IMG/VR virus record: IMGVR_UViG_3300015050_000913
Span: 5,385 to 69,384 of that record
Direction: 5' to 3' (one strand)
Source: a virus
Lineage: Duplodnaviria > Caudoviricetes
DNA: 64,000 nt
A program made the translations under genes and the position numbers. Below the pieces are notes generated by a model. It searched no databases. It was not told the origin of the DNA and saw only the letters and a list, made by a program, of their open reading frames with translations. This document shows positions 1 through 3,105 of the stretch, piece after piece; position 1 is the stretch's first letter, and every line of letters starts with the position of its first letter.

Positions 1-45
1 GAACTAAACGAAATTAATTAACCACCATTTAAACCAAAAAACAAA

Positions 46-474
46 ATGAAAGACAAGTTAAGAACCCCATTACTTGATTCACTTCAAAAACAACCAATTA
101 TGACAAAGAAAAAAATGTTCCGAATAGAACTAACACGCAGCAATACACTTGCACAGGATATTTGCATTATGGCATCCCTTTCAAATGGAAGTGGTAAGTA
201 CATATCCTTAACCGATATGGAAAGCATTGTAAAGGTGGAAATAATAAGATACCCTTCCCTTAACGAAGGCATATCTGTAACAGTAACAGACAATGTACTG
301 ACCATAGACAGAAAGGATGAAAACATACTGACCATTACAGAAGTGGAAATAATGCAAATGGACAAACCACAGTTATCCAACGAAGAAGCAAAAGCTATCA
401 TAGGAGTACCAACCATTGACCAATATGCAGGTACGGGCATTGCAGATGAAAGCAACAAGGAATTATTGAATTAG
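46..474 (+). CDS. Hypothetical protein; last ORF before the first attC-like site
   Basis: 142-aa ORF with A-rich leader. The stop TAG (472-474) abuts the GCGTATAAC inverse core. Confidence 0.7.
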   Translation: MKDKLRTPLLDSLQKQPIMTKKKMFRIELTRSNTLAQDICIMASLSNGSGKYISLTDMESIVKVEIIRYPSLNEGISVTVTDNVLTIDRKDENILTITEVEIMQMDKPQLSNEEAKAIIGVPTIDQYAGTGIADESNKELLN

Positions 475-601
475 CGTATAACGCCTGCGGCTTGGCGATG
501 TTGCCGAAACTGATGCTCAAAAAAGAACAAAAGTTGAAGTTACAATGTCAAGCCAAATTGAAAAACTAAACGGCAATATTGCCAAACCGCTTGTTAGCGG
601 C
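474..601 (+). mobile_element. attC-like recombination site 1
   Basis: GCGTATAAC (474-482) ... GTTAGCGGC (593-601). Inner arms 487-506 and 571-590 are complementary at 17/20. Confidence 0.8.
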
Positions 602-619
602 GGATACGGTAAATTATAA
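545..619 (+). CDS. Putative 24-aa leader peptide encoded inside attC-like site 1 (MSSQIEKLNGNIAKPLVSGGYGKL)
   Basis: ATG at 545 in the hairpin loop. It reads through the right arm and stops 3 nt before the ATG at 623. Confidence 0.35.
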   Translation: MSSQIEKLNGNIAKPLVSGGYGKL

Positions 620-622
620 AAT

Positions 623-1117
623 ATGTCACTGATAGCAACAAATTGGGAAAACGATATGCTGGCAGAACCGGAAGATAAAGTAATTGAGTTTATGCAAAAG
701 TATAATTCAGATTACGAGCTAAAATTATTATCTGGCTTACGTCATAGAGATATGGAAGATATAAGGGATAGCCTTAGAAATTCAAGAGTAATAATTATGC
801 AGCCCTCTTTATTGGAGAAAGAACAGGTTGTTAATATGGTTAAAAATATCAGCCACCCTATTCATGTAAATCTAAATGGAGCAACCCGTAATTATGACAT
901 AAGAGATTTTATTTTTCTTTCATCACATCCTTTTGAAGATTTGTGTCAAATTAAAGAATGGTGTCGTGGCGTTAAAGATGGATTTGATACAGGCGATGCT
1001 TTAACTAAAATACTGACAAATTGTGAAATACATTTTTACGGTTTTGCAGGGGAACATTATGAAATGAAAAGAATTGGATATTTCAGTGGCGATATTTACG
1101 CTGCCCGATATAAGTAG
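623..1117 (+). CDS. Hypothetical protein, cassette 1 cargo
   Basis: 164-aa ORF bracketed by GTTAGCGGC (593-601) and GCCGCTAAC (1130-1138). Confidence 0.8.
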   Translation: MSLIATNWENDMLAEPEDKVIEFMQKYNSDYELKLLSGLRHRDMEDIRDSLRNSRVIIMQPSLLEKEQVVNMVKNISHPIHVNLNGATRNYDIRDFIFLSSHPFEDLCQIKEWCRGVKDGFDTGDALTKILTNCEIHFYGFAGEHYEMKRIGYFSGDIYAARYK

Positions 1118-1129
1118 GGTGTAGTATTT

Positions 1130-1329
1130 GCCGCTAACGAACAGGGCTTGGCGATGGTTTGGAATAGATATTCGTCAGCCGATAACAAACGATTAATTAA
1201 TAACTAAAAGTTGAAAATATGAGTAAAAGTAAATTAGGGAGATGGGTTCCGTTACAGGAGCTTGGTATTGTACCAGAAGTTGAAGATACTTCCGTCAACC
1301 AAACTGTTGCCAAACCTAATGTTATAAGC
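1130..1329 (+). mobile_element. attC-like recombination site 2
   Basis: GCCGCTAAC (1130-1138) ... GTTATAAGC (1321-1329). Arms 1144-1162 and 1299-1317 pair at 14/19 plus 4 G:T. Confidence 0.8.
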
Positions 1330-1557
1330 AGTGTTGCAAGCACTATCGCTGATGGTAGCATTGTTTGGATAAAGGACAATATGCAAGTTCATTGCGGTCA
1401 AGTTCGTAAAGTTTATGCTGATGATAAGCAAGCCCTTGTTATGAACTTCGATAAATGGTCTGATTGGTTGGTAGACTTCGATAAGATTATAAGAGTTGGG
1501 GTGTCGTATTACACAGACGATTATAGGCACTACAGTTCACAGCAACATTGCTTATAA
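1219..1557 (+). CDS. Hypothetical protein, cassette 2 cargo; its N-terminus is encoded inside attC-like site 2
   Basis: 112-aa ORF. The stop TAA (1555-1557) lies inside the inverse core GCTTATAAC. Confidence 0.75.
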   Translation: MSKSKLGRWVPLQELGIVPEVEDTSVNQTVAKPNVISSVASTIADGSIVWIKDNMQVHCGQVRKVYADDKQALVMNFDKWSDWLVDFDKIIRVGVSYYTDDYRHYSSQQHCL

Positions 1558-1684
1558 CGGTTGGCATATTGCGAAGTGGTGGCGGCTTTGCAATATCGCT
1601 CAAACAACTGGTGATGCTGGGCTTTGCTAATAGTCGAAGTTTTGAACGTCAAGCTACCATTTTGCAAATGCCGTTGTTGGTGGC
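1550..1684 (+). mobile_element. attC-like recombination site 3
   Basis: GCTTATAAC (1550-1558) ... GTTGGTGGC (1676-1684). Arms 1563-1583 and 1653-1672 pair with one extrahelical A (1568). Confidence 0.8.
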
Positions 1685-1725
1685 TGTATGGTAAGATTAA
1701 TTATTAACTGTCAAAATAAAAAACG

Positions 1726-2169
1726 ATGAAAATTTTAAAGGATTATGTACACTTTTTTTTAGGCTGCCAATTTCAACTTTTTTGGAGAAATGATGATGGC
1801 ACTACTGAATATGAAAGGGATGGCGAATTGGTAACTATAAGGCCGCAAGATAAAGATACACACGGCTTAGTTTTTAGATGTAAAACAAAGGGCGGTAATT
1901 TTATAGAAATGGCTTATCCTTTTGAAGATGTAAAACCAATATTTAAGCCGCTTTCTGATTATAAAGAAATTAGCAGCGAAGGCTTGAATGATATTAATTG
2001 CGACCTGTCAAATCAAATGGAGATTGTTGACCTGGCGAATAAGCAACTACATTATTCATCAGCAACATTTGAAGCCGTAAGGCTTTGTTTAGAAAACAGA
2101 GTTGATGTTTTTAATCTGATTGATGAAGGGCTTGCTGTCAACGCCACCGAATTGAAGGCTGCAATATAG
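1726..2169 (+). CDS. Hypothetical phage protein, cassette 3 cargo
   Basis: 147-aa ORF bracketed by GTTGGTGGC (1676-1684) and GCCACCAAC (2169-2177). Confidence 0.8.
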   Translation: MKILKDYVHFFLGCQFQLFWRNDDGTTEYERDGELVTIRPQDKDTHGLVFRCKTKGGNFIEMAYPFEDVKPIFKPLSDYKEISSEGLNDINCDLSNQMEIVDLANKQLHYSSATFEAVRLCLENRVDVFNLIDEGLAVNATELKAAI

Positions 2170-2200
2170 CCACCAACTCTATGATTTACGCAATTTATAA
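2169..2200 (-). mobile_element. attI-like terminal half-site
   Basis: The core GCCACCAAC is not followed by an attC hairpin. The minus strand reads TTATAAATTGCGTAAATCATAGAG|TTGGTGGC. The role is inferred. Confidence 0.45.
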
Positions 2201-2217
2201 TAACTAATTGAATTACA

Positions 2218-2505
2218 ATGGAATTACACGAATTAACCATAGACCATACACGACAATACATGGTCGATGTACACGGTAAAAAATATCCGATAAAGCAACA
2301 GCGTGGCAGATATTACATCCAACATTCAAAAGGTCAGTTAACAGTAACAAGTAAGGTTAATGAATATACTGATTGGTGTTTTGATTATGTATTTGGTGGT
2401 TTATTTCAGCGTTATCCATGCCCTGTCATTGATTATTTTATTTATAGGCATAGACTTGGTAACAGAGTAAGTGCAATAGAATATAAAAAACAGTTTCTTA
2501 AATAA
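2218..2505 (+). CDS. Hypothetical protein
   Basis: 95-aa ORF followed by a terminator. Confidence 0.65.
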   Translation: MELHELTIDHTRQYMVDVHGKKYPIKQQRGRYYIQHSKGQLTVTSKVNEYTDWCFDYVFGGLFQRYPCPVIDYFIYRHRLGNRVSAIEYKKQFLK

Positions 2506-2538
2506 ATAAGGTGGTTTATAGTTTTGGTTTTAAAGGTT

Positions 2539-2567
2539 AACAGGGTGGTTTGGCTGCCCTGTTTTTT
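2539..2567 (+). terminator. Intrinsic terminator between convergent gene blocks
   Basis: AACAGGGTGG-TTTG-GCTGCCCTGTT hairpin followed by a T-tract. Confidence 0.65.
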
Positions 2568-2572
2568 ATTTA

Positions 2573-2881
2573 TCACACTTTTGTTTTTTCGTACTCATAT
2601 AATCTTTGGGCAAATTCTTCCACAAAATCTTCATTGTACTTTAACTTATGACGTTTCATGCTATCCAAAATCATATGGGTAAGTTCATGGTAAAAGGTCT
2701 TTTCCTTTTCAGGTTTTTTTAATTTTACGCCGTCATACCTGTTACACAATGTGATTATCTTTTCTGTAAAATCAGCCTCCCCGTAAAATTTATTATCCTG
2801 ACAGTAATCATCATCAATAATAACCTTAATCAGTTTTCCTGACAGTTTAAAGGACTCTGGTATGATGATGCTGCCGTTCAC
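2573..2881 (-). CDS. Small HExxH zinc-metallopeptidase-like protein
   Basis: FYHELTHMILD motif. Confidence 0.6.
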   Translation of the reverse strand: MNGSIIIPESFKLSGKLIKVIIDDDYCQDNKFYGEADFTEKIITLCNRYDGVKLKKPEKEKTFYHELTHMILDSMKRHKLKYNEDFVEEFAQRLYEYEKTKV

Positions 2882-3105
2882 TTCTTTGGGTATTTATTCC
2901 GTGTTACATCAACCGCCTTTGTGATTCTAATACTGTTTTCCTTCCTTATTTTTTTACTTAGTTTCTCCAGTTCCCGTAACTGCTGTGACGGGGTAAGCCC
3001 CGACAGTACTTCAAGTATTTTATCCTGAATACTCATATTGAGTAATTTGTAAGTGTTTATTGAGTAATTTGTTTTTTTCTGATTGGCTGATGTGAGGTCT
3101 TTCAT
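2878..3105 (-). CDS. Hypothetical protein
   Basis: 75-aa ORF overlapping both neighbours by 1-4 nt. Confidence 0.55.
   Translation of the reverse strand: MKDLTSANQKKTNYSINTYKLLNMSIQDKILEVLSGLTPSQQLRELEKLSKKIRKENSIRITKAVDVTRNKYPKK

Follow-up and report, generated by a model that had tools for sequence, protein, structure and literature searches.

A probable three-cassette array of an integron-like gene-capture system in a Caudoviricetes phage genome

Integrons and the clusters of attC sites lacking an integron integrase (CALINs) are the closest described counterparts of the locus reported here, a row of three hairpin sites and three small open reading frames (ORFs) at positions 474–2177 of a 64,000-nt stretch of viral DNA. 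This stretch, referred to below as the window, comprises bases 5385–69384 of the single 69,384-bp virus record IMGVR_UViG_3300015050_000913 (Duplodnaviria; Caudoviricetes). We regard the locus as a likely three-cassette array, belonging to an integron-like system for gene capture that is commonly found in Bacteroidota phages. In integrons, a cassette consists of an ORF followed by its attC site, reads away from the attI insertion site and has an antisense folding strand. The extrahelical bases of a canonical attC site lie across from the cleaved AAC of the bottom strand, on the other arm (PMC5027507). Complete integrons are nearly absent from Bacteroidetes in the IntegronFinder 2.0 survey. Qi et al. 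2023 described integrons and CALINs in phages, with recombination of phage attC sites that depended on IntI1 (PMC9892861). A phage-borne array as such is therefore not new, and the initial annotation, which knew of no characterized example, was out of date on this point.

In common with integrons and CALINs, the arrays described here have sites that form imperfect hairpins, bearing AAC/GTT cores and two boxes that pair; their crossover falls at a conserved triplet, so that core halves pair with the neighboring site, their folding is strand-asymmetric and, in relatives of the window array, a single fixed insertion half-site stands beside a tyrosine recombinase. Arrays without a recombinase likewise exist among integrons, as CALINs, which comprise two or more attC sites in series with no integron integrase nearby; the window has three chained sites and no recombinase. 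The present arrays differ in that the relatives use a 263–276-aa Xer-like enzyme without the IntI insert, and in that the phage arrays place the gene after the hairpin, reading toward the insertion site and often starting in the loop, with the coding strand as the folding strand. The spacers of 9 and 7 nt in the phage arrays are partly paired, the extra bases lie on the AAC arm, the outer stems are 14–17 bp long, and a TATATGTA-type motif lies beside the half-site. The integron order of ORF and site was encountered in Bacteroidota chromosomal arrays but not in the phage arrays.

Three further systems bear comparison. In “inverted” integrons, such as that of Treponema denticola, a true IntI integrase is co-oriented with the cassettes. 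The Bacteroidota chromosomal arrays resemble these in having recombinase and cassette genes in the same direction, in the order recombinase, insertion site, ORF plus hairpin, whereas the phage array lies upstream of the recombinase 5′ end with its ORFs on the site strand. Xer recombination on folded single-stranded phage DNA is known for the CTX phage attP at dif, and gene modules bounded by Xer sites are known as the pdif modules of Acinetobacter plasmids. These two resemble the present arrays in joining a Xer-family recombinase with a folded single-strand hairpin, or with Xer-bounded gene modules, but they rely on host XerC/XerD and dif-like 28-bp sites, with neither an offset-complementary cassette array nor a dedicated recombinase beside an insertion site. 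Finally, the PeSL promoter/stem-loop motifs of T4-type phages, known as mobile regulatory cassettes, similarly bracket small accessory genes of a plastic region that are shuffled as modules (PMC2839356, PMC4122927); they differ in being promoter/terminator motifs that act through homologous recombination, without AAC/GTT cores, offset complementarity or a tyrosine recombinase. Full-text literature searches returned no account of Bacteroidota phages with an integron-like system that is Xer-type and without the insert, and no paper on a Xer-type family in which phage gene polarity is opposite to that of chromosomal arrays.

Hairpin sites and cassettes of the window

The features of the array are as follows; designations such as G001, L084, L119 and L214 are labels of loci and contigs compared in this analysis.

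474–601, + strand: site S1, with left core GCGTATAAC (474–482), 9-nt spacer, stem arm TTGGCGATGTTGCCG, loop, stem arm CGGCAATATTGCCAA, 7-nt spacer and right core GTTAGCGGC (593–601); this left core, at the distal end of the array, is unpartnered; L119 and L214 contain a homologous site
482–1137, + strand: cassette 1, 656 bp, the S1 hairpin plus ORF 623–1117 (164 aa), with the end ...GCCGCTAA
1130–1329, + strand: site S2, with left core GCCGCTAAC, the reverse complement of the S1 right core, and right core GTTATAAGC; the loop contains the ATG (1219) of the next ORF
1138–1557, + strand: cassette 2, 420 bp, the S2 hairpin plus ORF 1219–1557 (112 aa)
1550–1684, + strand: site S3, with left core GCTTATAAC, the reverse complement of the S2 right core, and right core GTTGGTGGC; homologous site in L216
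1558–2176, + strand: cassette 3, 619 bp, the S3 hairpin plus ORF 1726–2169 (147 aa)
2164–2177, + strand: terminal half-site ATATAGCCACCAAC (core 2169–2177), complementary to the S3 right core at 13/14 positions, with no hairpin downstream
2178–2217, + strand: putative remnant of the right half of an attI-like site: TCTATGATTTAC, to be compared with the family motif NNNTATATGTA (7/12 positions as in G001, in register); the likeness is weak
2218–2505, + strand: 95-aa ORF in the place of the recombinase gene of relatives; not a recombinase

The left-core pattern GC-N4-AACG-N8-WTKGCGAWG occurs three times in the 64 kb, at 474, 1130 and 1550 and always on the + strand, where 0.01 occurrences are expected by chance and none of 100 shuffles reaches three. 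The right-core pattern TTGCMAA-N7-GTT-N4-GC was recovered at 579, 1307 and 1662, giving sites of 128, 200 and 135 nt for S1, S2 and S3, in agreement with the coordinates and geometry that the initial annotation had assigned to three hairpins. Aligned with three sites of the viral contig G001, these yield the consensus GC-N4-AAC-G-N8-[T/A]T[G/T]GCGA ... GC[C/A]AA-N7-GTT-N4-GC. An independent repeat search also reproduced the offset complementarity first noticed between neighboring sites, each right core being the reverse complement of the next left core: 593–607 pairs with 1124–1138 at 13/15 positions, 1321–1337 with 1542–1558 at 16/17, and the S3 right core with the terminal half-site (1676–1689 with 2164–2177) at 13/14. 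With the window and G001 taken together, 23 of 24 variable core positions (four per core) agree with the offset partner, and the variable parts of the two cores within one site match at 0–1 of 4 positions. A protein repeat was rejected as the source of the conserved right arm, as the reading frame of this arm in S2 differs from that in site B of G001.

All three sites fold better on the + than on the − strand, with S3, folded as RNA, reaching −47.6 kcal/mol on the former and −27.6 on the latter, because several stem positions are G–T pairs. Six of 25 stem pairs show compensatory changes among four sites (S2 and those of G001), and the G–T pairs are kept on the + strand. These hairpins resemble attC sites in build: they are imperfect, carry R′′/R′ (AAC/GTT) boxes and a second pair of boxes (L′′/L′), and vary in their terminal part. 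Only the AAC/GTT triplets of RYYYAAC/GTTRRRY are kept, however, and S1–S3 do not have the canonical attC layout with extrahelical bases on the L′′ arm, opposite the AAC arm: in S1–S3 it is the AAC arm that bears them, in the form of a partly paired 9-nt spacer against one of 7 nt, with a 4×2 or 3×2 internal loop. No Rfam family was matched in the window at gathering score.

The crossover appears to lie at AA|C of the left core, so that a cassette comprises a hairpin and the ORF that follows it, with the half-site at 2169–2177, which we take to be the attI-like end of the array, as the insertion end. The stop codon of ORF 1219–1557 ends precisely at the proposed crossover (TAA|C). When the ends of each cassette are joined in silico into a circular junction, full outer stems of 14–17 bp are restored, with gains of 6.7, 11.4 and 10.3 kcal/mol. 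A crossover at G|TT of the right core, as in canonical integrons, was rejected: homology to L214 ends just after the S2 left core and not at 1321, and the upstream partner expected from such a crossover is missing. This partner, GTTATACGC, had been predicted to lie upstream of the window; its only occurrence in the 69,384-bp genome is the site's own reverse complement. Its absence follows from the leftmost core being the old left half of the insertion site, which needs no partner. The site-bounded cassette design of the initial annotation is thus retained, with its polarity reversed.

The cargo genes offer few clues to function. Pfam and PHROGs searches with the three ORFs gave nothing informative, ORF 1219–1557 matching neither. 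ORF 623–1117 is predicted to form an alpha/beta domain (predicted local distance difference test score of 90), for which a search of PDB structures returned only generic alpha/beta matches with template modeling (TM) scores of 0.46 or lower, and ORF 1726–2169 groups with viral hypothetical proteins (Atlas). A tblastn search with the cassette ORFs against the first-gathered loci found no match.

Recombinase-linked arrays and cassette exchange in relatives

Sites S1–S3 are sequence homologues of sites in G001, L119, L214 and L216, and offset complementarity is likewise present in G001, L142, L119, L216 and many further loci. One of these is G001, a 37.6-kb viral contig that carries L084. It contains three homologous sites with the same offset complementarity (core pairs GTTGTCGGC/GCCGATAAC, GTTGGCAGC/GCTGCCAAC and GTTATGCGC/GCGCATAAC), and its array ends in a hairpin-less half-site that is followed, 89 nt on and on the same strand, by a 263-aa tyrosine recombinase with a complete set of catalytic residues. 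The best model for this protein is the Xer-like NF040815 (215.5 bits); the protein scores 186 bits against the integron integrase model TIGR02249, for which the cut-off is 265, and has 23 aa where IntI4 (2a3v) has 66, indicating that the IntI-specific insert is missing. The enzyme associated with these arrays is hence a short Xer-like recombinase and not IntI. About 5 kb upstream of the array, G001 has a gene for a large serine recombinase with Resolvase and Recombinase domains (L132:6442–8028), and the Xer-like enzyme is therefore probably not the integration enzyme of that element.

With the G001 recombinase as query, we recovered dozens of viral contigs at 43–75% identity. In 12 of 14 viral loci, a half-site matching the last right core lies 50–110 nt before the recombinase gene (263–276 aa) and is followed by the conserved motif NNNTATATGTA, AAC|NNN-TATATGTA. 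A loose 14-base DNA pattern run against the viral contigs gave mostly chance matches, with L084, L119 and a few others real; in L119, found through this DNA pattern alone, the array is again followed by a recombinase of the same type. The motif AAC|NNN-TATATGTA follows the half-site in L133, L135, L137, L138, L142, L144, L119, L163 and others, a second motif, AATAAAATCAACA, often stands between the half-site and the recombinase start codon, and chromosomal arrays have a TATAT-type motif after the half-site. The conserved sequence after the half-site is probably the second binding element of the insertion site.

Recombinase relatives at 35–49% identity are widespread in Bacteroidota genomes, many of them beside chained arrays of sites of about 124 nt. 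The two settings differ in polarity. In all nine chromosomal arrays compared (L226, L249, L250, L256, L259, L264, L269, L274 and L288; Bacteroidota and relatives), the ORFs lie opposite the site strand, and in the seven of these with a terminal half-site found, the array comes after the recombinase 3′ end. In the viral arrays (11/11), the ORFs lie on the site strand, each ORF being preceded by its hairpin and reading toward the half-site, and where a recombinase is present the array comes before its 5′ end. Of 120 chained sites, 93 are more stable on the strand whose 5′ spacer is the longer. The window array has the chained sites with a longer 5′ spacer, the xxxxxxAAC half-site and the ORFs on the site strand that mark this family; the recombinase is absent and the motif after the half-site is weak.

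Comparison with individual relatives locates cassette exchange at the AAC triplet. L214 has 498–1153 (S1 and ORF 623–1117) in common with the window at 91% identity, and directly after AAC it continues into a different, shorter hairpin. L215 has in common only 618–1139, that is, the ORF, with homology stopping at the AAC of 1136–1138, and the cores flanking the ORF in L215 are offset-complementary to each other. L216 and L217 have both S3 arms and ORF 1726–2169 up to 2058 at about 95% identity, with a different loop; upstream of AAC, both the core (GCCACTAAC) and the cassette (N6_N4 methyltransferase) of L216 are different, and its own three chained sites are offset-complementary. Since the S3 arms are alike and the loops unrelated (1550–1684 against L216:4040–4190), the terminal part of a site can evidently be replaced independently. 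Single cassettes are thus common to metagenomic relatives, but their neighbors differ. The methyltransferase cassette of L216 (3179–4032), an N6_N4 DNA methyltransferase gene that adjoins the homologue of window cassette 3, has its ATG inside the hairpin loop.

Cultured Polaribacter phages offer a further comparison, as distant relatives of the recombinase (31–38% identity) carry an integrase annotation in flavobacterial phages. Freya_1 (MT732463; L299/L300) and Freya_10 (MT732472; L298/L301) have flanks that are 100% and 99.8% identical, and Freya_10 has an extra block of 4,921 bp with about 12 small genes, beside the integrase and precisely after ...GTTTACAAC|. The junction in Freya_1 reads ...GTTTACAAC|ACCCCTATAAC..., followed by the integrase, and those in Freya_10 read ...GTTTACAAC|GGATATGG...(insert)...GTTGCTAAC|ACCCCTATAAC.... 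The Freya_10 insert is what successive half-site insertions would be expected to leave. From Freya_1 to Freya_10 the records lengthen in steps, from 43,978 bp up to 48,920 bp, and the integrase is displaced accordingly. A scan of Polaribacter phage P12002L, which has a published CALIN, gave no clean chained sites, and we draw no link between it and the Xer-type array family. The initial annotation had suggested comparing related phages for changes in gene content or order at GTT/AAC; the breakpoints in L214, L215, L216 and the Freya phages lie at AAC.

Proposed mechanism and alternative explanations

Taken as a gene-capture system, the array would operate as follows. A cassette is laid out as GC-N4-AAC, a 9-nt spacer, stem, variable loop, stem, a 7-nt spacer, GTT-N4-GC and one small gene, whose start codon may fall within the hairpin loop. 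As a free circle it would form one complete hairpin with an outer stem of 14–17 bp. Insertion at the half-site (xxxxxxAA|C, then the TATATGTA-type motif) would split this outer stem, leaving each right core to pair with the left core that comes after it; the downstream half-site would be the point of entry for new cassettes. We infer that the + (coding) strand folds as single-stranded DNA and that a Xer-like tyrosine recombinase cuts the folded strand at AA|C; by analogy with integrons, the junction would be resolved via replication.

Several points weigh against this reading or limit how far it reaches. Both the folding strand and the exact position of the cut within AAC are inferred, and the G–T asymmetry suits an RNA structure equally well, the folding strand being the coding strand. 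The extra bases of the spacer occur on the arm with AAC and those of canonical attC on the other (PMC5027507), so the integron mechanism may not transfer unchanged. The sequence to the right of the terminal half-site resembles the attI-type family motif only weakly. Homologues of ORF 623–1117 in two other phage-like contigs are tightly packed ordinary early genes without hairpins, near YopX and Lar-type genes. Moreover, this phage has no recombinase, and activity of this particular array can at most be surmised.

The best-surviving alternative, which we nevertheless consider improbable, is that the locus is a fragment of a canonical bacterial IntI integron, a CALIN with classic attC sites cut at the right-core G|TT by a host IntI. 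The AAC/GTT cores, the two-box imperfect hairpins and the offset complementarity would all be expected of such a fragment, and CALINs of lytic phages are published, some of them recombined by IntI1 (PMC9892861). On this account, however, the predicted upstream partner should be present, and it is absent; relatives break at the left-core AAC, with the hairpin traveling with the downstream ORF; and the ORFs point to the insertion site, starting inside loops. The enzyme beside homologous arrays is without the IntI insert (23 vs 66 aa; TIGR02249 186 vs 265), complete IntI integrons are almost absent from Bacteroidetes, and the cores fit RYYYAAC/GTTRRRY at the AAC/GTT triplet only.

Slightly less probable still is repeat-mediated homologous recombination of the PeSL kind, in which the hairpin arms would serve as portable homology for the general recombination of the phage. 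The arms are indeed conserved between unrelated cassettes, L216 and the window have the same S3 arms with different loops, and for T4-type phages there are published records of PeSL-bounded modules and of mini-circles (PMC2839356, PMC4122927). Exchange within the arms, though, would not yield a variable core of 4–6 nt with its complement at the far end of the cassette, and would place breakpoints within the longest homology and not at an AAC triplet; the constant half-site and recombinase at one end of the array would be left unexplained. The least probable alternative is an RNA element pure and simple, with processing or stability stems round each ORF, or translational control, and no site-specific DNA recombination: it accords with the better-folding strand being the coding strand with conserved G–U pairs, with the start codons in the loops of S2, G001 and L216 sites and with the ability of a right core and the next left core to pair across each ORF in RNA, but it leaves unexplained the whole-cassette replacements with AAC breakpoints, the 4.9-kb Freya_10 insertion at AAC, the half-site with conserved motif beside a tyrosine recombinase in 12/14 loci and the opposite strand of the ORFs in chromosomal arrays of the same family; nor is there any Rfam match. 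An additional RNA role beside recombination is possible.

Genomic setting and significance

The record is rated complete by CheckV, has inverted terminal repeats and encodes phage proteins such as a DNA polymerase exonuclease subunit (phrog_403). Small + strand genes in a row form an early operon from the genome start to window position 2505, closed by an intrinsic terminator at 2539–2563, with a long block of − strand genes opposite; the array occupies the far end of this operon. Its composition differs from that of the upstream operon (GC content 0.35–0.41 vs 0.28–0.33), with a positive GC skew and no excess of A. Between genome positions 1260 and 5420 (upstream of the window, and window 1–45), a motif TAACCACC(A/C)...AAACC... 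precedes nearly every small early ORF and may be a phage early promoter or translation signal; the array lacks it. Neither blastn with window 1–3000 nor tblastn with the 1254-aa protein found a close relative among deposited phages, the DNA polymerase exonuclease gene retrieved 10 loci of which none is syntenic around the array, and ORF 46–474 and ORF 2218–2505 had no match in viral contigs.

The absence of an integrase from the window, already remarked on in the initial annotation, extends to the complete 69-kb genome, in which neither a tyrosine recombinase nor a remnant of one was found. The gene-capture array of this phage is therefore either a relic, inherited and currently immobile, or is served in trans by an enzyme of a co-infecting phage, a prophage or the host. 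The core pairs in the window are still perfect, and L214 has a 3-nt deletion in one; perfect pairs are compatible with recent activity, short of proof. A broader proposition, which we put forward tentatively and hold to be possible rather than likely, is that Bacteroidota phages have their own integron-like branch, in which a Xer-like enzyme without the IntI domain acts on folded hairpins, the polarity is inverted so that a coding-strand hairpin is at once recombination site and translation-start module, and recombinase-less lytic phages such as this one trade cassettes by means of a trans enzyme from co-infection or the host.

The extra domain of IntI is held to be required when integrons recombine folded single-stranded sites, and a large family with the same logic but a plain Xer-like enzyme would challenge this view and bear on the origin of integrons from Xer recombinases. 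Direct tests of the system are possible, since the Polaribacter phages Freya_1 to Freya_10, which are in culture, differ at the site. The window adds to the family a recombinase-less member with three datable cassette swaps, and raises the question of service in trans. For the phages, the arrays would be a dedicated route to gain and lose small early genes singly, with methyltransferase cassettes among those of relatives, and such single-gene cassette turnover would help to explain the hyperplastic early regions of flavobacterial phages.

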